NCBI RefSeq assembly: GCF_055900595.2 | Contig: NZ_CM148325.1 | Strand: one strand, 5' to 3' | DNA: 64,000 nucleotides | Part shown: positions 40,311-55,641 of the stretch, one piece after another | Numbering within the stretch: the stretch's first letter is position 1 | How the letters are laid out: each line of letters opens with the position of its first letter | Notes under the pieces: generated by a model | Told to the model about the DNA's origin: nothing | Databases searched by the model: none | The model's input: the letters and a program-made list of their open reading frames with translations, nothing else | Translations under genes and position numbers: made by a program

Positions 40311-41465
40311 TTACTTCAGACCGGCAGCATCACGCAGCAGCTGCGCTTTGTCGGTTTTTTCCCACGGGAAATGTTCACGACCAAAGTGACCGTATGCTGC
40401 GGTTTCTTTGTAGATCGGGTGCAGCAGATCCAGCATCTGAATCAGACCGTATGGGCGCAGGTCGAAGAATTCACGTACCAGCAGAGTCAGTTGTTCAGAA
40501 GGCACTTTCTCAGTACCGAAAGTTTCTACCATGATGGAAGTCGGTTCAGCCACGCCGATTGCGTAGGAAACCTGAATTTCACAACGATCGGCCAGGCCAG
40601 CAGCAACAATGTTTTTCGCGACATAACGTGCTGCGTAGGCTGCGGAACGGTCCACTTTTGATGGATCTTTACCGGAGAACGCACCGCCACCATGACGCGC
40701 CATGCCGCCGTAGGTATCAACGATGATTTTACGACCAGTCAGACCGCAGTCACCCATCGGGCCACCGATAACGAAACGACCGGTCGGGTTGATGAAGAAT
40801 TTGGTGGCAGAAGTCAGCCATTCAGCGGGCAGAATCGGCTTGATGATCTCTTCCATTACCGCTTCTTGCAGCGATTTCTGGTCGATCTCTTCAGAGTGCT
40901 GAGTGGAAAGCACGACAGCATCAATGCCAACGATTTTGCCGTCGTCATACTGGAAAGTCACCTGGCTTTTCGCGTCCGGGCGCAGCCACGGCAGAGTGCC
41001 GTTTTTACGCACTTCAGCCTGACGCTGTACCAGACGGTGTGCATAAGTGATAGGTGCTGGCATCAGCACGTCGGTTTCATTAGTTGCGTAGCCAAACATC
41101 AGCCCCTGGTCGCCCGCGCCCTGTTCCAGCGGATCGGCACGGTCAACGCCCTGGTTGATGTCAGGAGACTGTTTACCGATGGCGCTCAGAACCGCACAGG
41201 AGTTAGCGTCAAAGCCCATGTCGGAATGCACATAGCCAATTTCGCGAACGGTATTACGGGTGATCTCTTCGATGTCTACCCAGGCGCTGGTGGTGATTTC
41301 GCCGCCAACTAAAACCATGCCGGTTTTTACGTAGGTTTCGCAAGCAACGCGTGCTTTCGGATCCTGTTCGAGGATCGCGTCTAAAACGGCATCAGAGATT
41401 TGGTCAGCAATTTTGTCAGGATGCCCTTCAGAGACGGACTCGGACGTAAAAAGGTGTTTTGCCAT
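40311..41465 (-). CDS. metK: S-adenosylmethionine synthetase
   Basis: Start set at [32 protein letters not shown] (384 aa), matching E. coli MetK throughout. Confidence 0.95.
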
Positions 41466-42119
41466 ATTTAATATCACCTAAAGAGAATTTGGTTAGCTCA
41501 AACTGTTGTGTGGATTTTCTGTGGTAGCGGATCCTACCACGACTCTGCAGGTTAAAAACACTGGCAGTCTGAGTGTTAATCGGTATGGATGGATTAACAT
41601 CTGGATGGCTATTTTAGGTCAGTTCTTCACCCAATTTCCACTTTTTTTTGAATCGTGTCTCATTCTGTTAAAAACGTGGCTGGAAATTTTTCCTGACAAT
41701 GCTGGCATTCTGCGTATTTATCTTTTGCAATTTTCTGCCATTGTGGGGTATAAAACGCGGCGCGCGGCTTAAATAAAAAGCACACGACGTTTCTTTCGTG
41801 TTGCCACTTCCAGCCGGGTTGAAAACAGAGTTTTGGCTTGTGGGTTCGTCTTAACAGGCGGCCGTGGAGGTGATACGAAATAATGAACCGTTGTCTGCTG
41901 CTTAACCTGTCTCACCGTTCTGGTGAAGATTCGTTCCCCGCACTCTGCATCTCTGCTTTGCATACCTGCCGATGTTATACCCATCTCGGCGCTTCTCAGG
42001 ATTCAAGAGCTGGTTACAGCTACTGAGGACTGAACAAGGGCGCTCTTGTAAAAACAAGAGTTTTCTCGTGGTTTCGCCGAACTGTCACACTTACGTTCGG
42101 TTATGTGCTTAATAATGTT

Positions 42120-42251
42120 ATGAAAAAGAAACCGGTTGCGCAGTTGGAGCGTCAGCATTCACTGCTGGAAAATCCATGTGCTTATGGGTTGTTATCGCAG
42201 TTCCAGGCTGCGATAGTCGTTAACTGTTTTACACTTAATAAAATAATTTGA
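42120..42251 (+). CDS. yqgB: Small protein YqgB (43 aa) upstream of speA
   Basis: ATG at 42120 gives [43 protein letters not shown], matching my recollection of E. coli YqgB; ends 8 nt before the speA start. Confidence 0.55.
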
Positions 42252-42259
42252 GGTTCGCT

Positions 42260-44236
42260 ATGTCTGACGACATGTCTATGGGTTTGCCTTCGTCAGCGGG
42301 CGAACACGGTGTACTACGCTCCATGCAGGAGGTTGCAATGAGCTCCCAGGAAGCCAGCAAGATGCTGCGTACTTACAATATTGCCTGGTGGGGCAATAAC
42401 TACTATGACGTTAACGAGCTGGGCCACATCAGCGTGTGCCCGGACCCGGACGTCCCGGAAGCTCGCGTCGATCTCGCGCAGTTAGTGAAAACTCGCGAAG
42501 CACAGGGTCAGCGTCTGCCTGCACTGTTCTGTTTCCCACAGATCCTGCAGCACCGTTTGCGTTCCATTAACGCCGCGTTCAAACGAGCGCGGGAATCCTA
42601 CGGCTATAACGGCGATTACTTCCTCGTTTATCCGATCAAAGTTAACCAGCACCGCCGCGTGATTGAGTCCCTGATTCATTCGGGCGAACCGCTGGGCCTG
42701 GAAGCCGGTTCCAAAGCCGAGTTGATGGCGGTGCTGGCACATGCTGGCATGACCCGTAGCGTCATCGTCTGCAACGGTTATAAGGACCGCGAATATATCC
42801 GCCTGGCATTAATTGGCGAGAAGATGGGCCACAAGGTCTATCTGGTCATTGAGAAGATGTCAGAAATTGCCATTGTGCTGGATGAAGCAGAACGTCTGAA
42901 TGTCGTTCCTCGTCTGGGCGTGCGTGCACGTCTGGCTTCGCAGGGCTCGGGTAAATGGCAGTCCTCCGGCGGGGAAAAATCGAAGTTTGGCCTGGCGGCG
43001 ACTCAAGTACTGCAACTGGTTGAAACGCTGCGTGAAGCCGGGCGTCTCGACAGCCTGCAACTGCTGCACTTCCACCTCGGTTCGCAGATGGCGAATATTC
43101 GCGATATCGCGACAGGCGTTCGTGAATCCGCGCGTTTCTATGTGGAACTGCACAAGCTGGGCGTCAATATTCAGTGCTTCGACGTCGGCGGCGGTCTGGG
43201 CGTGGACTATGAAGGCACCCGTTCTCAGTCTGACTGCTCCGTAAACTACGGCCTCAATGAATACGCCAACAACATCATCTGGGCGATTGGTGATGCGTGT
43301 GAAGAAAATGGTCTGCCACATCCGACGGTAATCACCGAATCGGGTCGTGCGGTGACTGCGCATCACACCGTGCTGGTGTCGAATATCATCGGCGTGGAAC
43401 GTAACGAATACACGGTGCCGACCGCGCCTGCAGAAGATGCACCGCGCGCCCTGCAAAGCATGTGGGAAACCTGGCAGGAAATGCACGAACCGGGAACTCG
43501 CCGTTCTCTGCGTGAATGGTTACACGACAGCCAGATGGATCTGCACGACATTCATATCGGCTACTCTTCCGGCACCTTTAGCCTGCAAGAACGCGCATGG
43601 GCTGAGCAGCTTTATTTGAGCATGTGCCATGAAGTGCAAAAGCAGCTGGATCCGCAAAACCGTGCTCATCGTCCGATTATCGACGAGCTGCAGGAACGTA
43701 TGGCGGACAAAATGTACGTCAACTTCTCGCTGTTCCAGTCGATGCCGGATGCGTGGGGGATCGACCAGTTGTTCCCGGTTCTGCCGCTGGAAGGGCTGGA
43801 TCAAGTGCCGGAACGCCGCGCTGTGCTGCTGGATATTACCTGTGACTCAGACGGTGCTATCGACCACTATATTGATGGTGACGGTATTGCCACGACAATG
43901 CCTATGCCGGAGTACGATCCGGAGAATCCGCCGATGCTCGGTTTCTTTATGGTCGGCGCATATCAGGAGATCCTCGGCAACATGCACAACCTGTTCGGTG
44001 ATACCGAAGCGGTTGACGTGTTCGTCTTCCCTGATGGTAGCGTAGAGGTAGAACTGTCTGACGAAGGCGATACCGTGGCGGACATGCTGCAATATGTGCA
44101 GCTCGATCCGAAAACGCTGTTAACTCAGTTCCGCGATCAGGTGAAGAAAACCGATCTTGATGCTGAACTGCAACAACAGTTCCTGGAAGAGTTCGAGGCA
44201 GGTTTGTACGGTTATACCTATCTTGAAGATGAATAA
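42260..44236 (+). CDS. speA: Biosynthetic arginine decarboxylase
   Basis: Start set at [45 protein letters not shown] (658 aa) matching E. coli SpeA. Confidence 0.95.
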
Positions 44237-44382
44237 TTAAGATTATTCTGCTGGCGGGGCGATTTATTTACGTAAATCGGCCCGCTTTCTTTTTATATAT
44301 TCTTAAAAATAATTTAGCTGCTTTTCTGGTGATGCTGCCAACTTACTGATTTAGTGTATGATGGTGTTTTTGAGGTGCTCCA

Positions 44383-44658
44383 GTGGCTTCTGTTTCTATC
44401 AGCTGTCCCTCCTGTTCAGCTACTGACGGGGTGGTGCGTAACGGCAAAAGCACCGCCGGACATCAGCGCTATCTCTGCTCTCACTGCCGTAAAACATGGC
44501 AACTGCAGTTCACTTACACCGCTTCTCAACCCGGTACGCACCAGAAAATCATTGATATGGCCATGAATGGCGTTGGATGCCGGGCAACCGCCCGCATTAT
44601 GGGCGTTGGCCTCAACACGATTTTCCGCCATTTAAAAAACTCAGGCCGCAGTCGGTAA
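44383..44658 (+). CDS. insA: IS1 InsA (transposition inhibitor / N-terminal part of InsAB-prime transposase)
   Basis: 91-aa [46 protein letters not shown]… identical in character to IS1 InsA. Confidence 0.9.
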
Positions 44659-45080
44659 CCTCGCGCATACAGCCGGGCAGTGACGTCATCGTCTGCGCGG
44701 AAATGGACGAACAGTGGGGATACGTCGGGGCTAAATCGCGCCAGCGCTGGCTGTTTTACGCGTATGACAGGCTCCGGAAGACGGTTGTTGCGCACGTATT
44801 CGGTGAACGCACTATGGCGACGCTGGGGCGTCTTATGAGCCTGCTGTCACCCTTTGACGTGGTGATATGGATGACGGATGGCTGGCCGCTGTATGAATCC
44901 CGCCTGAAGGGAAAGCTGCACGTAATCAGCAAGCGATATACGCAGCGAATTGAGCGGCATAACCTGAATCTGAGGCAGCACCTGGCACGGCTGGGACGGA
45001 AGTCGCTGTCGTTCTCAAAATCGGTGGAGCTGCATGACAAAGTCATCGGGCATTATCTGAACATAAAACACTATCAATAA
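44577..45080 (+). CDS. insB: IS1 InsB (C-terminal transposase part, expressed by -1 frameshift fusion with InsA)
   Basis: 167-aa [67 protein letters not shown]… matching IS1 InsB; overlaps insA in the -1 frame. Confidence 0.85.
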
Positions 45081-45158
45081 GTTGGAGTCATTACCTGCTT
45101 TTCTTATTAAATAATCTCCCTACAATCGCTGCATTAATTAAATGCAGAGGGAACGGTT

Positions 45159-45890
45159 ATGAAAAAATGGAAAGTACGTAGCGCGTTGGTGGCATTAATC
45201 GTGCTGCTGGCTGGTTGTTCCAGTAATGCGCAGTATAATAGCAGTGCATCAGGCAATGTCGGCACCGCCTGGGGTGGGGATGTGCACTCAACGGTTCAGG
45301 GCGTATCTGCTGAACGAGCCTGGCGCGATCCGGCAGAGATGATCGTTATTAGTTATTCGACTAATGTTCCTTCCGGCTACGACCGCGTTTATAGCATTCG
45401 TATTAACGAACTGGAATATGCTATTCGCGATGGTAATTTTAATTCTCTACCTATTACGCGGGTTTATGATTCATCCAATAATGAACCACGCTATATTGTC
45501 CATGCCAGAGTCGGAATGAATTATCAATTATATGTCCGTAATTACAGTCGTAACACCAACTACGAGATCGTTGCTACGGTTGATGGCCTGGATGTGCTGA
45601 ACGGCAAGCAAGGTTCGCTGAATAACAACGGTTATATTGTGAATGCCGGAGATTCGTTAGCGATTAAAGGATTCCGCAAAGATAAACATACCGAAGCGGC
45701 TTTTCAGTTCGCCAACGTTGCTGATTCCTACGCAGCCAATTCGGCGCAAGGCGATGTGCGTAATACCGGTGTAATCGGCTTTGCCGCCTTTGAATTACAA
45801 GGCCCGGCGAAAAACGCGCTGCCGCCGTGCTCTGGACAAGCCTTTCCGGCAGATAACAATGGCTATGCGCCGCCACCGTGTCGGAAATAG
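45159..45890 (+). CDS. Lipoprotein of unknown function (signal peptide with lipobox LLAGC)
   Basis: 243-aa ORF MKKWKVRSALVALIVLLAGCSSNAQ…; Asn/Tyr-rich mature region; sits between speA and speB. No family recalled. Confidence 0.65.
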   Translation: MKKWKVRSALVALIVLLAGCSSNAQYNSSASGNVGTAWGGDVHSTVQGVSAERAWRDPAEMIVISYSTNVPSGYDRVYSIRINELEYAIRDGNFNSLPITRVYDSSNNEPRYIVHARVGMNYQLYVRNYSRNTNYEIVATVDGLDVLNGKQGSLNNNGYIVNAGDSLAIKGFRKDKHTEAAFQFANVADSYAANSAQGDVRNTGVIGFAAFELQGPAKNALPPCSGQAFPADNNGYAPPPCRK

Positions 45891-45957
45891 CAACCTCGCT
45901 TGATGCCTCGCCCATTTAAGGCGATAATTAGCACAAACTTGTGTTTCACAAATCCAA

Positions 45958-45997
45958 CCCTTCCTCGTCGGGCCTAACGACGCGGAAGGGTTTTTTT
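45958..45997 (+). terminator. Rho-independent terminator downstream of the lipoprotein gene
   Basis: CCCTTCCTCGTCG-GGCCTAA-CGACGCGGAAGGG followed by TTTTTTT; 13-bp stem with one mismatch. Confidence 0.55.
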
Positions 45998-46025
45998 ATA
46001 TCGACTTTGTAATAGGAGTCCATCC

Positions 46026-46946
46026 ATGAGCACCTTAGGTCATCAATACGATAACTCACTGGTTTCCAACGCCTTTGGTTTTTTACGCCTGCCGATGAAC
46101 TTCCAGCCATATGACAGCGATGCTGACTGGGTGATTACTGGCGTGCCGTTCGATATGGCCACTTCTGGTCGTGCGGGTGGTCGCCACGGTCCGGCAGCGA
46201 TCCGTCAGGTTTCGACGAATCTGGCCTGGGAACACAATCGCTTCCCGTGGAATTTCGACATGCGTGAGCGCCTGAACGTCGTGGACTGCGGCGATCTGGT
46301 ATATGCCTTCGGAGATGCCCGTGAGATGAGCGAGAAGCTGCAGGCGCACGCCGAGAAGCTGCTGGCTGCCGGTAAGCGTATGCTCTCCTTCGGTGGTGAC
46401 CACTTTGTTACGCTGCCGCTGCTGCGCGCTCATGCGAAGCATTTCGGCAAAATGGCGTTGGTACACTTTGATGCCCACACCGATACCTACGCTAACGGTT
46501 GTGAATTTGACCACGGCACCATGTTCTATACCGCGCCGAAAGAAGGTCTGATCGACCCGAATCATTCTGTGCAGATTGGTATTCGTACCGAGTTTGATAA
46601 AGACAACGGCTTTACCGTGCTGGACGCCTGCCAGGTGAACGATCGCAGCGTGGATGACATTATCGCCCAGGTGAAACAGATTGTGGGTGATATGCCGGTT
46701 TACCTGACCTTTGATATCGACTGCCTGGATCCTGCTTTTGCACCAGGCACCGGTACGCCGGTAATTGGCGGCCTGACCTCCGATCGCGCCATTAAACTGG
46801 TACGCGGCTTGAAAGATCTCAACATCGTTGGGATGGACGTAGTGGAGGTGGCTCCGGCATACGATCAGTCGGAAATCACCGCTCTGGCTGCGGCGACGCT
46901 GGCGCTGGAGATGCTGTATATCCAGGCGGCGAAAAAGGGCGAGTAA
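46026..46946 (+). CDS. speB: Agmatinase (agmatine ureohydrolase)
   Basis: 306-aa ORF with arginase-fold motifs ([22 protein letters not shown]) matching E. coli SpeB. Confidence 0.95.
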
Positions 46947-46974
46947 GCGCCAGATAAGAGGCGCGCGGGTGATG

Positions 46975-47135
<161 letters not shown>

Positions 47136-47149
47136 GGCACTACCTGGCT

Positions 47150-47908
47150 TTACTTAACTCCATCCGCGCTCATACGATCGCGAATATGCTGGGCGCGTTC
47201 GGCGGATGCAGGATGGTCGTCAAACATTGAGCTTTGGCGGCCTTCTTCCAGTTTCGCCAGTTTTTCAAAGCTGGTGGCAAGACCTGCCGGGCTGATACCG
47301 CGTTGGCGCAGCAAATCGTAGGAGTAATCATCGGCCTCTGATTCCTGACGTTGGGTAAATTGCGAATTGACTAGCTTTTCGCCCAGGTCTCCCAGTTGTG
47401 ATTGTGACAAACTGCCGACAATTCCGCCTGCAGAGGCCGCCGCAACGCGAATTGCGTTTGTACCAAGTGCTACCTGCATTCCTTTCTTCACATGGCCTAA
47501 TGCCACGTGCCCCATTTCGTGACCGAGCACCGCTTCGACTTCGTTATCCGTCATCATATCCATCAGCCCGCTATAGACGCGGATACAGCCGTTAGCCATT
47601 GCAAAGGCGTTCACATCCTTCGCCATATACACTTTGTAATTCACCGGCTGACCGTTGATGTTATCGCCTAACGCGCGAGAAATTGTCGTCAGACGTCTAG
47701 CATATTCGCTATTGGCTGGCGCAATCGTCGCTTTGCTGTCCATCTCCTGGCATGCCTGATCGCTCAGTTTTTTCACCTGCGCATCACTCAAACTGTAAGC
47801 CTGAAAAGCTTCCGCTCCTGATGAGAGCAGTCCACTGGAGTCCATATTCTGGCAACCGGTCAGCACCGTAGCCACGCTCATTGCTACCAATAAGGCGCGA
47901 ATTTTCAT
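47150..47908 (-). CDS. loiP: Periplasmic M48-family metalloprotease (lipoprotein)
   Basis: Start set at MKIRALLVAMSVATVLTGCQ (252 aa); HEMGH zinc motif; matches E. coli LoiP/YggG. Confidence 0.9.
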   Translation of the reverse strand: MKIRALLVAMSVATVLTGCQNMDSSGLLSSGAEAFQAYSLSDAQVKKLSDQACQEMDSKATIAPANSEYARRLTTISRALGDNINGQPVNYKVYMAKDVNAFAMANGCIRVYSGLMDMMTDNEVEAVLGHEMGHVALGHVKKGMQVALGTNAIRVAAASAGGIVGSLSQSQLGDLGEKLVNSQFTQRQESEADDYSYDLLRQRGISPAGLATSFEKLAKLEEGRQSSMFDDHPASAERAQHIRDRMSADGVK

Positions 47909-48185: not shown

Positions 48186-50177
48186 ATGTCCTCACGTAAA
48201 GAGCTTGCCAATGCTATTCGTGCGCTGAGCATGGACGCAGTACAGAAAGCCAAATCCGGTCACCCGGGTGCCCCTATGGGTATGGCTGACATTGCCGAAG
48301 TCCTGTGGCGTGATTTCCTGAAACACAACCCGCAGAATCCGTCCTGGGCTGACCGTGACCGCTTCGTGCTGTCCAACGGCCACGGCTCCATGCTGATCTA
48401 CAGCCTGCTGCACCTCACCGGTTACGATCTGCCGATGGAAGAACTGAAAAACTTCCGTCAGCTGCACTCTAAAACTCCGGGTCACCCGGAAGTGGGTTAC
48501 ACCGCAGGTGTAGAAACCACCACCGGTCCGCTGGGTCAGGGTATTGCCAACGCAGTCGGTATGGCGATTGCAGAAAAAACGCTGGCGGCGCAGTTTAACC
48601 GTCCGGGCCACGACATCGTCGACCACTACACCTACGCCTTCATGGGCGACGGCTGCATGATGGAAGGCATCTCCCACGAAGTTTGCTCTCTGGCGGGTAC
48701 GCTGAAGCTGGGTAAACTGATTGCGTTCTACGATGACAACGGTATTTCTATCGATGGTCACGTTGAAGGCTGGTTTACCGACGACACCGCAATGCGTTTC
48801 GAAGCTTACGGCTGGCACGTTATTCGCGATATCGACGGTCATGACGCGGCATCCATCAAACGCGCAGTAGAAGAAGCGCGCGCAGTGACTGACAAACCGT
48901 CCCTGCTGATGTGCAAAACCATCATCGGTTTCGGTTCCCCGAACAAAGCCGGTACCCACGACTCCCACGGTGCGCCGCTGGGCGACGCTGAAATTGCCCT
49001 GACCCGCGAACAGCTGGGCTGGAAATACGCGCCGTTCGAAATCCCGTCTGAAATCTATGCTCAGTGGGATGCGAAAGAAGCAGGCCAGGCGAAAGAATTC
49101 GCATGGAACGAGAAATTCGCTGCTTACGCGAAAGCTTATCCGCAGGAAGCTGCTGAATTTACCCGCCGTATGAAAGGCGAAATGCCGTCTGACTTCGATG
49201 CCAAAGCGAAAGAATTCATCGCTAAACTGCAGGCTAATCCGGCGAAAATCGCCAGCCGTAAAGCGTCTCAGAATGCGATTGAAGCGTTCGGCCCGCTGTT
49301 GCCGGAATTCCTCGGCGGCTCTGCTGACCTGGCACCGTCTAACCTGACCCTGTGGTCTGGTTCTAAAGCAATCAACGAAGATGCTGCGGGTAATTACATC
49401 CACTACGGTGTTCGCGAGTTCGGTATGACCGCGATTGCTAACGGTATCTCCCTGCACGGTGGCTTCCTGCCGTACACCTCCACCTTCCTGATGTTCGTGG
49501 AATACGCACGTAACGCCGTACGTATGGCTGCGCTGATGAAACAGCGTCAGGTGATGGTTTACACCCACGACTCCATCGGTCTGGGCGAAGATGGCCCGAC
49601 TCACCAGCCGGTAGAGCAGGTCGCTTCTCTGCGCGTGACCCCGAACATGTCCACATGGCGTCCGTGTGACCAGGTTGAATCCGCGGTCGCGTGGAAATAC
49701 GGCGTTGAGCGTCAGGACGGCCCGACTGCGCTTATCCTCTCCCGTCAGAACCTGGCGCAGCAGGAACGTACTGAAGAGCAGCTGGCAAACATCGCGCGCG
49801 GTGGTTATGTGCTGAAAGACTGTGCCGGTCAGCCGGAACTGATCTTCATCGCTACCGGTTCTGAAGTTGAACTGGCGGTTGCTGCCTACGAAAAACTGAC
49901 TGCTGAAGGCGTGAAAGCGCGCGTGGTTTCCATGCCGTCTACCGACGCATTCGACAAGCAGGATGCGGCTTACCGTGAGTCTGTACTGCCGAAAGCGGTT
50001 ACTGCACGCGTTGCGGTGGAAGCTGGCATTGCTGACTACTGGTACAAGTATGTTGGCCTGAACGGTGCTATCGTCGGCATGACCACCTTCGGTGAATCTG
50101 CTCCGGCAGAGCTGCTGTTTGAAGAGTTCGGCTTCACCGTTGACAACGTTGTTGCGAAAGCAAAAGAACTGCTGTAA
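48186..50177 (+). CDS. tktA: Transketolase 1
   Basis: Start set at [40 protein letters not shown] (663 aa) matching E. coli TktA. Confidence 0.95.
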
Positions 50178-50196: not shown

Positions 50197-50225
50197 GAAG
50201 GGCCGCGAAAGCGGCCCTTTTTTTA
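50197..50225. terminator. Bidirectional rho-independent terminator between tktA and the convergent SPFH gene
   Basis: GAAGGGCCGC-GAAA-GCGGCCCTTTTTTT hairpin. Confidence 0.55.
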
Positions 50226-51131
50226 CTTAGTAGAGATAAACGGAACTGTACTGCCGGGGATCATGGTATCGGGTAGCTTACCGTCCCAACGCTCAGCAGT
50301 GGTGAGGGCAACAAGTCCGGGATTATCCCGCAGAGCTTCACCGCGCAGGCGGATCGCTTCTGCTTCAGCCGCACTTTTTAAACGAATAGTTTCAGCCTCT
50401 GCCGCGCCTCTTACGCGAATAGTCTCAGCTTCTGCTTTGGCTGCCGCCAGTTTACTGTCTGCTTCTGCCTGGGCCTGAGTTACCGCTATTTGCGCCTGGA
50501 TTTTCTCTGTTTCCAGATTTTGCTTACGTGTGGCAATGGCGACTTCTGCTTTCATTCGATCTTCAATCGATTTTTCATAAGCGTCAGAAAAATCAATATT
50601 TTCAATCTGGACACCATCAATCACCACCGGGCCAACAACGGCTTTACGCATTGCATTTTGCAGATCCTGAACCAGTTTTGTACGATCCTGTACCGCGCTG
50701 ATGGCGGTATATTGGCCGAAAACGTTCTCCAGTTGAGTTGGCAACTGACGGACAATCAGACGATCTTTTAATGCTTCAATGGTGTTGTAGGTGGTATAAA
50801 CCGCGCCTGCTTCTGAAGGTTTAATGTGGAAGCTGACTGATACTGTCATTTGTGCCGGTTGCTGGTCGCGGCTGTAGGCCTGTAATCCCTGATAAACCAC
50901 AGCCTGATTACGCGTGGAAATTTTCTCTACGCTTTCCATAAAAGGGATCTTAAAACCCAGACCCGGCTCGGCAACTTTTACGATTTTTCCGTAGCGCAGC
51001 AAAATGCCGCGTTCACCTTCATTAACGGTGTAATACGAGAGAAATGGCAGCACAACCACGGTAATCACGCCAATGGCGATAGCAATAGATTTTTGTGGGC
51101 GAAATGAGGTTATTGAAACAGGTGCTTTCAT
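50223..51131 (-). CDS. SPFH/band-7 (prohibitin/flotillin-like) membrane protein with C-terminal Ala/Glu-rich coiled-coil repeats
   Basis: 302-aa ORF with N-terminal TM helix, SPFH core (YTVNEGERGILLRYGKI…) and repetitive tail (AEAETIRVRGAAEAETIRLKSAAEAEAIRLRGEA). Confidence 0.7.
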   Translation of the reverse strand: MKAPVSITSFRPQKSIAIAIGVITVVVLPFLSYYTVNEGERGILLRYGKIVKVAEPGLGFKIPFMESVEKISTRNQAVVYQGLQAYSRDQQPAQMTVSVSFHIKPSEAGAVYTTYNTIEALKDRLIVRQLPTQLENVFGQYTAISAVQDRTKLVQDLQNAMRKAVVGPVVIDGVQIENIDFSDAYEKSIEDRMKAEVAIATRKQNLETEKIQAQIAVTQAQAEADSKLAAAKAEAETIRVRGAAEAETIRLKSAAEAEAIRLRGEALRDNPGLVALTTAERWDGKLPDTMIPGSTVPFISTK

Positions 51132-51506
51132 GAGAATCTTCCTTGAGTAAAGCGTGGGAATATGTCACATGAGGTGAGGAGAAAACAGCCAACAGGTGAG
51201 AATTCAGAATCTATAAAGGGGGAGAGCGAAAAACATCGGCTAAAAAAGTATGTTTTCGAACATTCAATAGATAAATAGAGATATGCATCACAAATACATA
51301 GGCAGATAAAACATTGGTTTTGTGATAAACATAGCAAACACAAACTTGACTTTATAAGTATAAATTTCATGTTGTTGTTATTTAACATTTTATTATTTTG
51401 GTTCATGTTTTTTTTCTTCTCGCGTGCCCAATTGCTTTCATTAAATCGCACGAGTATTTTATTTTTACCGCCGGACGGTACCCTAAAAATAAAATAAGGA
51501 TAATTT

Positions 51507-51950
51507 ATGCGGCTTATTGATTATTTTCCAGAATCATCAATCTCAGTTATACATTCAGCAAAAGATTGGCAGGAAGCTATCAATTTCTCGATGGCATCAT
51601 TGCTGGATAAAAACTATATCAGCGAGAATTACATTCAGGCTATTAAAGATTCCACCATTAACAATGGCCCTTATTATATTCTCGCACCAGGCGTGGCAAT
51701 GCCTCATGCGCGACCGGAATGTGGGGCGCTTAAAACCGGGATGTCTTTGACGTTACTTAAACCAGGCGTTTATTTTCCGGGGAATGACGAACCGATTAAA
51801 TTACTTATCGGTCTTTCTGCTGCCGATGCCGATTCGCACATTGGTGCTATTCAGGCGTTAAGTGAATTGCTGTGCGAAGAAGAAATACTTGAACAACTCT
51901 TAACTGCAACATCAGAAAAACAATTAGCGGACATTATCAGCCGCGAATAA
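51507..51950 (+). CDS. cmtB: Cryptic mannitol-type PTS EIIA component
   Basis: 147-aa ORF matching E. coli CmtB. Confidence 0.9.
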   Translation: MRLIDYFPESSISVIHSAKDWQEAINFSMASLLDKNYISENYIQAIKDSTINNGPYYILAPGVAMPHARPECGALKTGMSLTLLKPGVYFPGNDEPIKLLIGLSAADADSHIGAIQALSELLCEEEILEQLLTATSEKQLADIISRE

Positions 51951-51977
51951 TGACTCTCTCCTCTACAGGATAATATT

Positions 51978-53366
51978 ATGGAAAACAAGTCTGCTCGTGC
52001 AAAGGTCCAGGCTTTTGGGGGCTTTTTGACGGCAATGGTCATCCCCAATATTGGTGCTTTTATTGCCTGGGGTTTTATTACTGCATTATTTATTCCTACT
52101 GGTTGGCTGCCTAACGAACATTTCGCCAAAATTGTCGGCCCGATGATTACCTATTTATTGCCCGTAATGATTGGTTCTACCGGTGGCCATTTAGTCGGCG
52201 GTAAACGCGGCGCAGTCATGGGCGGAATAGGGACAATTGGTGTAATCGTCGGCGCAGAAATCCCGATGTTCCTTGGTTCAATGATCATGGGACCGTTAGG
52301 TGGGCTGGTCATAAAATATGTCGATAAGGCACTGGAAAAACGCATACCTGCTGGTTTTGAGATGGTTATCAATAACTTCTCATTAGGTATCACCGGGATG
52401 CTCCTTTGTCTGCTGGGTTTTGAAGTAATCGGCCCGGCGGTGTTAATTGCCAATACTTTCGTCAAAGAGTGTATTGAGGCGCTGGTACATGCGGGCTATC
52501 TGCCTTTGCTGTCAGTCATCAATGAACCGGCGAAAGTGCTTTTCCTCAATAACGCGATAGATCAGGGCGTCTATTACCCGTTGGGGATGCAACAGGCTTC
52601 AGTTAACGGTAAATCCATCTTCTTTATGGTGGCGTCCAACCCTGGGCCTGGCTTAGGACTGCTGTTGGCGTTTACTTTGTTTGGTAAAGGGATGAGTAAA
52701 CGTTCTGCGCCCGGGGCGATGATTATTCACTTCCTCGGTGGGATCCACGAACTGTATTTCCCGTATGTGCTGATGAAGCCGCTGACCATTATTGCCATGA
52801 TTGCCGGCGGTATGTCTGGCACCTGGATGTTTAACTTACTGGACGGTGGTCTGGTGGCTGGTCCAAGTCCGGGGTCTATCTTTGCTTACCTTGCACTGAC
52901 GCCGAAAGGCTCGTTCCTGGCGACAATTGCCGGTGTTACGGTAGGTACCCTGGTGTCCTTTGCTATCACTTCCGTAATACTGAAGATGGAAAAAACGGTG
53001 GAAACGGAGAGCGAAGATGAGTTTGTGCAGTCCGCCAATGCGGTTAAGGCGATGAAACAAGAAGGTACATTCTCGTTAAGCCGGGTTAAGCGTATCGCCT
53101 TTGTTTGCGATGCGGGAATGGGCTCCAGCGCGATGGGCGCAACCACCTTCCGTAAGCGCCTGGAAAAAGCGGGGCTGGCAATAGAAGTAAAACATTACGC
53201 GATAGAAAACGTGCCTGCAGATGTGGATATCGTCGTTACTCACGCTAGTCTGGAAGGGCGCGTGAAACGTGTGACGGATAAACCGCTGATATTGATTAAT
53301 AACTATATTGGCGATCCCAAACTCGACACTTTATTTAATCAATTAACCGCTGAACATAAAAACTGA
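51978..53366 (+). CDS. cmtA: Cryptic mannitol-type PTS EIICB component
   Basis: 462-aa ORF with polytopic EIIC domain and C-terminal EIIB (FVCDAGMGSSAMGA) matching E. coli CmtA. Confidence 0.9.
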   Translation: MENKSARAKVQAFGGFLTAMVIPNIGAFIAWGFITALFIPTGWLPNEHFAKIVGPMITYLLPVMIGSTGGHLVGGKRGAVMGGIGTIGVIVGAEIPMFLGSMIMGPLGGLVIKYVDKALEKRIPAGFEMVINNFSLGITGMLLCLLGFEVIGPAVLIANTFVKECIEALVHAGYLPLLSVINEPAKVLFLNNAIDQGVYYPLGMQQASVNGKSIFFMVASNPGPGLGLLLAFTLFGKGMSKRSAPGAMIIHFLGGIHELYFPYVLMKPLTIIAMIAGGMSGTWMFNLLDGGLVAGPSPGSIFAYLALTPKGSFLATIAGVTVGTLVSFAITSVILKMEKTVETESEDEFVQSANAVKAMKQEGTFSLSRVKRIAFVCDAGMGSSAMGATTFRKRLEKAGLAIEVKHYAIENVPADVDIVVTHASLEGRVKRVTDKPLILINNYIGDPKLDTLFNQLTAEHKN

Positions 53367-53380
53367 TTGCCGAGGTAAAA

Positions 53381-54658
53381 ATGAAAACCAAAGTTGCTGC
53401 TATTTATGGCAAGCGGGATGTCCGTCTGCGCGAATTTGAACTGCCCGAAATTACCGATAATGAACTGCTGGTGAGTGTAATTTCTGACAGTGTGTGTTTA
53501 TCGACCTGGAAAGCGGCGTTACTCGGTAGCGAACATAAACGGGTGCCCGACGATTTAGAAAATCATCCGGTCATTACCGGGCATGAATGTGCCGGGATTA
53601 TTGTTGAAGTGGGGAAAAATCTTACCGACAAATATAAAAAAGGCCAACGTTTTGTATTGCAACCGGCGATGGGGCTACCAAGCGGGTATTCTGCGGGATA
53701 CAGCTACGAATATTTTGGCGGTAATGCTACCTATATGATTATTCCGGAGATCGCCATTAACCTGGGCTGCGTATTACCGTATCACGGATCTTATTTTGCT
53801 GCGGCGTCTCTGGCAGAGCCGATGTGCTGCATTATTGGCGCTTATCATGCCAATTATCACACCACGCAATATGTTTATGAGCATCGCATGGGCGTGAAAC
53901 CTGGTGGCAATATTGCGCTGCTGGCGTGTGCTGGCCCGATGGGGATAGGCGCTATCGATTACGCTATTAACGGCGGCATACAACCGTCGCGGGTAGTGGT
54001 GGTCGATATCGACGACAAACGCCTGGCACAGGTGCAGAAGCTGCTGCCGGTGGAGCTGGCGGCCAGCAAAGGCATTGAGCTGATATATGTGAATACCAAA
54101 GGAATGGCCGATCCGGTACAGAAGCTGCGGGCGCTGACAGGAGATGCTGGGTTCGATGACATTTTTGTTTATGCGGCGGTGCCTGCTGTCGTTGAGATGG
54201 CTGACGAATTACTGGCGGAAGATGGCTGCCTGAACTTCTTTGCCGGGCCGACGGATAAAAACTTCAAAGTGCCGTTTAATTTCTACAACGTCCATTACAA
54301 CAGCACGCACGTCGTCGGTACATCGGGTGGTTCAACGGACGATATGAAAGAGGCGATTGCCCTGAGCGCCACGGGGCAGTTGCAACCGTCGTTTATGGTG
54401 ACGCATATCGGTGGCCTGGATGCAGTGCCAGAAACCGTTCTCAATTTACCGGATATCCCCGGTGGTAAAAAACTCATTTACAACGGCGTTACCATGCCGC
54501 TCACCGCCATTGCCGATTTTGCCGAAAAAGGTAAAACAGATCCGCTGTTTAAAGAGCTTGCGCGGCTGGTTGAGGAAACGCACGGCATCTGGAATGAACA
54601 GGCCGAGAAATATCTGCTGGCGCAATTTGGCGTTGATATCGGGGAGGCCGCGCAATGA
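53381..54658 (+). CDS. yggP: Zinc-type alcohol-dehydrogenase-like protein
   Basis: 425-aa ORF matching E. coli YggP; MDR-family fold. Confidence 0.85.
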   Translation: MKTKVAAIYGKRDVRLREFELPEITDNELLVSVISDSVCLSTWKAALLGSEHKRVPDDLENHPVITGHECAGIIVEVGKNLTDKYKKGQRFVLQPAMGLPSGYSAGYSYEYFGGNATYMIIPEIAINLGCVLPYHGSYFAAASLAEPMCCIIGAYHANYHTTQYVYEHRMGVKPGGNIALLACAGPMGIGAIDYAINGGIQPSRVVVVDIDDKRLAQVQKLLPVELAASKGIELIYVNTKGMADPVQKLRALTGDAGFDDIFVYAAVPAVVEMADELLAEDGCLNFFAGPTDKNFKVPFNFYNVHYNSTHVVGTSGGSTDDMKEAIALSATGQLQPSFMVTHIGGLDAVPETVLNLPDIPGGKKLIYNGVTMPLTAIADFAEKGKTDPLFKELARLVEETHGIWNEQAEKYLLAQFGVDIGEAAQ

Positions 54659-55620
54659 TGTCCCTGGCGTGGCCATTATTTCGCGTTACGGAGCAGGCAG
54701 CGTTGGCTGCCTGGCCGCAAACCGGATGTGGCAACAAAAATAAAATTGATGGCCTGGCGGTCACCGCGATGCGCCAGGCATTAAACGATGTCGCTTTTCG
54801 TGGGCGAGTGGTCATCGGCGAGGGAGAAATTGACCATGCGCCGATGCTGTGGATTGGCGAAGAGGTGGGCAAAGGCGATGGGCCAGAAGTCGATATCGCG
54901 GTTGACCCGATTGAAGGCACGCGGATGGTGGCGATGGGGCAGAGCAATGCGCTGGCGGTAATGGCTTTCGCCCCACGAGGCAGCCTGTTACACGCGCCCG
55001 ATATGTATATGAAAAAGCTGGTCGTTAATCGGCTGGCGGCGGGCGCGATTGATCTGGCGTTACCCCTGGCGGACAACTTGCGCAATGTGGCGAAAGCGTT
55101 AGGCAAACCGCTGGACCAGCTACGTATGGTTACGCTGGATAAACCGCGCCTGAGAGCCGCAATTGAGGAAGCGACACAACTGGGCGTGAAGGTTTTTGCC
55201 CTGCCAGATGGCGATGTCGCCGCCAGCGTGCTGACCTGCTGGCAGGATAATCCTTACGACGTGATGTACACCATCGGCGGCGCGCCGGAAGGAGTTATTT
55301 CTGCCTGTGCTGTTAAAGCATTGGGTGGGGATATGCAGGCCGAGCTGATTGATTTTTGTCAGGCCAAAGGGGATTACACGGAAAATCGGCAGATTGCAGA
55401 ACAGGAACGCCAGCGTTGCAAGGCAATGGGCGTTGACGTTAACCGTGTGTACTCGCTCGATGAACTGGTGAGGGGGAACGATATCCTCTTTAGCGCTACG
55501 GGCGTGACGGGCGGCGAGTTGGTGAATGGTATCCAACAGACGGCGAATGGGGTGCGGACGCAGACATTACTGATCGGCGGCGCGGACCAAACGTGTAATA
55601 TAATAAACTCCCTGCATTGA
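54655..55620 (+). CDS. yggF: Fructose-1,6-bisphosphatase class II (GlpX-like)
   Basis: 321-aa ORF matching E. coli YggF; start overlaps the yggP stop. Confidence 0.85.
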   Translation: MMSLAWPLFRVTEQAALAAWPQTGCGNKNKIDGLAVTAMRQALNDVAFRGRVVIGEGEIDHAPMLWIGEEVGKGDGPEVDIAVDPIEGTRMVAMGQSNALAVMAFAPRGSLLHAPDMYMKKLVVNRLAAGAIDLALPLADNLRNVAKALGKPLDQLRMVTLDKPRLRAAIEEATQLGVKVFALPDGDVAASVLTCWQDNPYDVMYTIGGAPEGVISACAVKALGGDMQAELIDFCQAKGDYTENRQIAEQERQRCKAMGVDVNRVYSLDELVRGNDILFSATGVTGGELVNGIQQTANGVRTQTLLIGGADQTCNIINSLH

Positions 55621-55641
55621 TGGTGATCTATCGGAAGACGA

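Follow-up and report, generated by a model that had tools for sequence, protein, structure and literature searches.

IS1 proper is an element of about 768 bp whose two ends are imperfect inverted repeats, each about 23 bp long and starting with GGTRATG. It carries two consecutive open reading frames, insA and insB', with a -1 frameshift at an A6C motif, and it leaves a target duplication of 8 or 9 bp. The IS1 promoter is weak and is repressed by InsA. Few kinds of structural variant are as common in E. coli as an IS1 insertion. The IS1 of plasmid R100/NR1 (IS1R; 'IS1-like element IS1B family' in PGAP annotation) has the same repeats, insA, insB', A6C frameshift and 9-bp duplication as the copy described below. 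According to PMC10359306, IS1 prefers AT-rich targets and duplicates 9 bp in 78% of events and 8 bp in the other 22%, and the classic study of its specificity is that of Zerbib et al. (1985, J Mol Biol 185:517), as cited in PMC9330008. Moreover, fusion promoters formed by IS1 have been documented (Prentki et al. 1986, J Mol Biol 191:383), as listed in Table 1 of PMC9330008.

In this study, an IS1 copy between speA and speB was analyzed in a 64-kb stretch of DNA, which is called the window here and to which all positions refer. The preferred reading, to which a probability of roughly 85% is given, is that of an ordinary, complete IS1 which entered an intrinsic IS1 hot spot by simple insertion, was then passed on within a small sublineage and has little or no effect on fitness. 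In this scheme, the InsAB' transposase would be made through the -1 frameshift at A6C, and a staggered cut of the target followed by gap repair would yield the 9-bp duplication. The landing place would be the AT-rich spacer that runs from the speA terminator to an accessory lipoprotein gene. A single event would have occurred in a recent ancestor of the E. coli sublineage that includes strains U1, 28Eco12 and the source of the window, and the element would have stayed unrearranged since. The insertion in itself matters little, being routine IS1 biology. A literature search found no paper on IS1 at speA-speB and no mention of a hot spot in the speA-lipoprotein spacer.

Anatomy and genomic setting of the element

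Inspection of the sequence placed the element at 44328-45095 on the plus strand, with a length of 768 bp (RefSeq label 'IS1B family'; annotated in U1 and 28Eco12). All 768 of its 768 bases are identical to the IS1 of R100 (NC_002134.1), so that the element itself is without difference from the R100 copy and the chromosomal location alone differs. The same 768 bp also occur at 100% identity on thousands of enterobacterial plasmids. The left terminal inverted repeat (IRL, 44328-44350) reads GGTGATGCTGCCAACTTACTGAT, and the right one (IRR, 45073-45095) reads ATCAATAAGTTGGAGTCATTACC at the end of the element, with GGTAATGACTCCAACTTATTGAT as its reverse complement; the two repeats match at 18 of 23 positions. 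The first frame, insA (44383-44658, plus strand), encodes 91 amino acids with a zinc ribbon and a helix-turn-helix (Pfam PF03811, Zn_ribbon_InsA, and PF12759, HTH_Tnp_IS1), and the insB' frame, which ends at 45080, holds the DDE domain (Pfam DDE_Tnp_IS1, PF03400, E 2.3e-78). The A6C motif of the programmed -1 frameshift (AAAAAAC, within TTAAAAAACTC) lies at 44634-44640, where RefSeq also annotates a 'programmed frameshift'. When the -1 shift was made conceptually at this motif, the frames joined into a 232-aa InsAB' without an internal stop (44383-45080, plus strand), for which RefSeq has the joined CDS WP_095033700.1. A promoter-like site, CTGCCA-16-TATGAT, spans the IRL at 44335-44362 on the plus strand; it was the only sigma-70-like match in the scanned region 44150-45250, and its position is presumably that of the insA promoter of IS1 (P_IRL).

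The element is flanked by two perfect copies of TGCTTTTCT, at 44319-44327 and at 45096-45104, each directly abutting IS1; genomes with an empty site have this 9-mer there once. The segment 44319-45104 therefore consists of exactly IS1 and both duplications. When both strands of the window were searched, TGCTTTTCT was found at no other place, and an identical 9-mer at both ends of the element would be expected by chance with a probability of about 4^-9. The junctions of the filled site could be looked for in other assemblies by the k-mers TTTAGCTGCTTTTCTGGTRATG and CATTACC(T)GCTTTTCTTATTAAAT. At the level of sequence, the length, repeats, reading frames, A6C motif, duplication and identity to the reference are all those of IS1. 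The initial annotation had described a complete 768-bp IS1 with both inverted repeats, insA/insB and an intact 9-bp duplication, and the repeat comparison, the Pfam matches, the identity to R100 and the perfect 9-mers directly at both IS1 ends bear this out. The copy is without visible defect in its sequence and may well be competent for transposition at present.

The genes in this part of the window are arranged in the order metK (minus strand), yqgD, yqgG, yqgB, speA (plus strand), IS1 (plus strand), a lipoprotein gene of 243 codons and speB. The upstream neighbor, speA, encodes the biosynthetic arginine decarboxylase (42260-44236, plus strand; ORF and RefSeq annotation, 28Eco12 locus 1261-3237). 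The accessory lipoprotein gene (45159-45890, plus strand) encodes 243 amino acids with a lipobox LLAG/C, the slash marking the cleavage point, and corresponds to the RefSeq 'hypothetical protein' WP_000758911.1; comparison of this protein with Pfam, NCBIfam and PDB sequences gave nothing beyond signal-peptide-level matches. Further downstream lies speB, encoding agmatinase (46026-46946, plus strand; ORF and RefSeq annotation). The element was correctly placed between speA and the lipoprotein gene by the initial annotation, and its distances of 92 and 64 bp were each off by one: 91 nt separate the speA stop codon (44234-44236) from IS1, and 63 nt separate the end of IS1 from the lipoprotein ATG (45159).

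The lipoprotein gene is not found in all E. coli. A contiguous empty-site query that included the first 542 bp of this gene was matched in 3,541 of the 5,426 complete genomes. In strain K-12, neither this gene nor the region of the speA terminator is present, and about 55 bp of unrelated sequence is found instead (L017, 1799-1935). Deletion of the gene by IS1 in K-12 was considered and was ruled out by the alignment, which holds no remnant of an IS.

Distribution and age of the insertion

Removal of IS1 and one 9-mer from the window gave a reconstructed empty site of 1,124 bp. Many complete E. coli genomes, among them Nissle 1917, LF82, NRG 857C, 'clone D', SaT040 and ZH063, have this sequence uninterrupted and without a single difference. 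In contrast, only 2 of 5,426 complete RefSeq genomes have the filled site, with its two junctions and its 9-bp duplication, namely U1 (NZ_CP041359.1, Japan) and 28Eco12 (NZ_CP038505.1, Colombia, urine), in both of which PGAP labels the element 'IS1-like element IS1B family transposase, programmed frameshift'. The junctions, the duplication, the IS and the flanks of these two insertions are identical to those of the window, and the identity of the insertion is thereby reproduced in two independent assemblies. No difference was found between 28Eco12 and the window over the 7.5 kb compared, and U1 differs at 1 position over 26 kb around IS1 (23000-49198).

With 2 annotated occurrences among 5,426 complete genomes, the insertion is private to a lineage, evolutionarily recent and already known. 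Indeed, as a textbook element annotated in public genomes, the insertion is not new. The earlier suggestion of a recent insertion agrees with the 100% empty sites elsewhere and with the rarity of the filled site, provided that 'recent' is taken as relative, for the insertion is common to isolates from Japan and Colombia and to the source of the window and so predates their divergence. The U1/28Eco12 sublineage could be recognized by it as a marker.

The identity to U1 falls abruptly to 93-98% from window position 49199, inside tkt, onward, especially over 50198-56944, and unmatched gaps against U1 were seen at 54828-55467 and 56630-56944. Position 49199 looks like a recombination boundary. When the whole 24-kb query was used, no complete RefSeq genome matched it throughout. 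In view of the divergence from U1 past 49199, the source of the window is not U1 itself but a third relative, of mosaic make-up, which has the block with IS1 in common with U1.

Repeated use of the speA-speB spacer by IS1

A 1.5-kb query of the filled site returned 10 genomes and a synthetic query with the IS inverted returned 10 more, the search joining same-strand pieces only. Junction mapping in these 20 genomes resolved about 13 distinct IS1 events in the speA-speB spacer: 3 at the position of the window's insertion, 1 recurrent site 27 bp downstream and about 9 inside the lipoprotein gene. Since the first 10 genomes all carried IS1 in the same orientation, a region-wide orientation bias was considered; it was rejected as a search artefact, because the IS-inverted query gave 10 genomes with the opposite orientation. 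Only at the exact site of the window is the orientation the same in 3 of 3 cases.

The two further insertions at this site are those of CUVET20-PYO4 and SCU-316, which belong to two unrelated E. coli lineages (L005 and L007, IS1 at 1329-2096 in both). Their left junction and orientation are those of the window, and their duplication is of 8 bp, GCTTTTCT. The IS1 of CUVET20-PYO4 differs from that of the window at 8 positions and the IS1 of SCU-316 at 72 positions, which are distributed over the whole element and include both terminal repeats. Over 1,995 shared columns, the flanks differ from those of the window by 61 substitutions in CUVET20-PYO4 and by 38 in SCU-316, the nearest flank SNPs lying 69 bp to the left and 93-116 bp to the right of IS1. 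Furthermore, for the flank haplotype of each carrier, empty sites of 100% identity were found in other genomes, which argues for three independent hits on one position. The simplest reading of these alignments is that three independent insertions occurred at one phosphodiester bond, with one cut fixed at CT/TA (the slash marking the cut, between 44327 and 45105) and a stagger of 8 or 9 bp.

A single ancient insertion could also have been spread by descent or homologous recombination, with later gene conversion of IS1 and a 1-bp deletion that turned the 9-bp duplication into one of 8 bp. The identical left junction and orientation in all three carriers would be explained in this way, and the numerous IS1 copies per genome could have acted as conversion donors. 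Such a history is nevertheless highly improbable. The three carriers differ in their flank haplotype, with SNPs as close to IS1 as 69-116 bp, and the exact empty-site relatives of each haplotype already indicate that every carrier is nested among empty-site strains. The 8 and 72 differences occur throughout the element, terminal repeats included, and the duplications are of different length. Several extra events would be needed, whereas independent insertion needs none.

The preferred reading, repeated insertion at an intrinsic hot spot, draws on the independent arrival of other IS1 variants at this very phosphodiester in other lineages. CT/TA is thus a nucleotide-precise IS1 hot spot, which fits the known target preference of the element: of all 40-bp stretches in the local region, the one with the target is the richest in A+T (82%). 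Documented IS1 hot spots (Zerbib et al. 1985, as cited in PMC9330008; PMC10359306) are likewise described as AT-rich targets with 8- and 9-bp duplications and reuse of one position, as here. The background density of IS1 was gauged with two queries that are each half IS1. A 140-nt left-junction query gave about 62,000 chromosomal matches, or about 11 IS1 copies per genome, and the 1.5-kb query gave a median of about 10-11 matching places per genome. In rough arithmetic, which is no proper enrichment statistic for a clonally structured genome set, a uniform model would predict about 0.004 carriers at a given position and orientation among 3,541 genomes, whereas 4 were observed there and the window adds one more; over the whole region of about 0.8 kb, the excess on the same rough footing is only about 3-fold.

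This hot-spot observation is a small, well-supported addition that is consistent with known IS1 biology. The reuse of one base-precise site by three IS1 variants illustrates cleanly, and in natural genomes, how specific IS1 is in its targets, and the site could serve as a chromosomal substrate for asking what defines IS1 hot spots, whether AT-richness, curvature, or binding of H-NS or IHF.

Many unrelated E. coli IS1 copies were seen to align 30-40 nt into the left flank at about 73% identity. The three such copies inspected (L018, about 900-937; L019, about 905-944; L020, about 905-946) have AT-rich runs like TTAAAAATAAT at 15-25 bp from the IRL, and T-rich duplications. A shared left-flank motif was rejected as an explanation of this likeness, the copies having been picked by BLAST from about 60,000 IS1 copies, so that the likeness may reflect a common AT-rich preference.

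The second recurrent site, 27 bp downstream, has the duplication CAATCGCTG (window 45123-45131). Both 20KM2222 and MS 21-1 carry IS1 there, oppositely oriented (L009 and L010, IS1 at 1356-2123), on distinct flank haplotypes with differences at 15, 39 and 41 bp from the IS. Insertion at this site parts a -10-like element, TACAAT, from the lipoprotein gene.

Within the lipoprotein gene itself, IS1 has broken the coding sequence at about 9 positions in other strains, equivalent to window 45399-45466 and 45680-45718, and five of these events are clustered in the approximately 70 bp of 45399-45466 (disruptions at L002, L003, L004, L006 and L013-L015). In N10, 23CRST038 and EC32, the in-gene IS1 is without a target duplication and its far side is joined to uacT, ygeQ and sat (L011 and L012, IS at 1689-2456 in both; L016, IS at 1913-2680). 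The missing duplications and the junctions with distant genes indicate that rearrangement mediated by IS1 has deleted or rearranged speB and its neighbors in these three strains.

With three hits at the same site in the same orientation and about 10 further IS1 events within the lipoprotein gene or a little upstream of it, selection on this gene could be an alternative explanation of the recurrence. The insertions would then be adaptive and regulatory, having been favored for an altered expression of this gene. That the three independent insertions share one site and one orientation speaks for such selection, and the approximately 9 other events that knock out the gene suggest that it is often under relaxed or negative selection. 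On the other hand, recurrence at one site is already expected from the known non-random target choice of IS1, and the coexistence of disruptive and non-disruptive insertions fits mere tolerance in an accessory gene. In addition, the carriers are rare (4 of 3,541 genomes with a contiguous speA-lipoprotein spacer), and none has grown into a large clade. Adaptive regulation is therefore regarded as unlikely. Similarly, it is doubtful that CT/TA and the position 27 bp downstream form an orientation-biased hot spot whose reuse in unrelated lineages is maintained, beyond target preference, by selection for a rewired lipoprotein expression.

Possible effects on transcription

If selection had acted on expression, a promoter at the right end of IS1 would be a possible means of raising it. 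The geometry found here is that given for the fusion promoters of Prentki et al. (1986; cited in PMC9330008), with an outward -35-like hexamer 8 bp from the tip of the IS, so that a -10 element just past the duplication is correctly spaced. The best candidate in the window is TTGGAG (45082-45087), which faces outward within the IRR, followed after 17 bp by TATTAA (45105-45110). The -10-like hexamer lies exactly 17 bp from TTGGAG with a 9-bp duplication and would lie 16 bp from it with an 8-bp duplication, which, together with the published precedent, speaks for an adaptive role. Against this, the candidate hexamers here are weak in comparison with the documented fusion promoters: with 3 of 6 and 4 of 6 matches, the candidate agrees with the consensus at 7 of 12 positions, and despite its correct spacing it was not reported by the scanner. 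The scan of 44150-45250 found no outward promoter. Since IS1 and the lipoprotein gene share their orientation, read-out from the IS promoter into this gene is also possible. Outward promoter activity of IS1 toward the lipoprotein gene, which had been proposed in the initial annotation, is accordingly kept as a possibility, and in an adaptive scenario either the fusion promoter TTGGAG-17-TATTAA or IS read-out could increase expression.

Expression could instead have been lowered by displacement of the AT-rich, UP-like tract upstream of the gene. Among its native sequences, TACAAT (45121-45126) is the one that most resembles a -10 element, and TTTTCT, which falls within the duplicated 9-mer, would be a poor -35 partner for it. 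IS1 left this native core intact and displaced the upstream AT-rich tract by 777 bp. Separation of the tract from the core promoter region might cause a modest change of expression in either direction. If the insertions did change the expression of the lipoprotein gene, they would offer a first handle on its role.

The neutral reading of the insertion is in keeping with the signals on either side of it. A strong putative intrinsic terminator of speA, consisting of a GC-rich hairpin and a U-tract, was located by folding at 44254-44294 on the plus strand, its function being suggested by its shape. The RNA of 44237-44327 folds with a dG of -25.2 kcal/mol (z -3.83), and 0 of 200 shuffled sequences folded as well. 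The promoter and terminator scan of 44150-45250 missed this hairpin through its limit on loop size, and folding recovered it. IS1 starts 33 nt past the hairpin. A second terminator-like hairpin, which is shared with K-12, lies just before speB at 45956-45997. With a terminator upstream of IS1 and a hairpin before speB, the effect on read-through from speA is probably small, and the polarity added to speA-to-speB read-through is likewise likely to be small. Moreover, no coding sequence is disrupted and IS1 lies downstream of the speA terminator, and for these reasons little effect on either speA or speB is expected. The insertion is thus most likely neutral or nearly so.

In a search of 41000-47500 against Rfam (E <= 0.1), the target spacer matched no known RNA. 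Between speB and loiP, at 46974-47128 on the minus strand, the search gave two matches to the REP-like naRNA4 family, with scores of 50.1 and 37.7 bits that are below the gathering score of 59.5.
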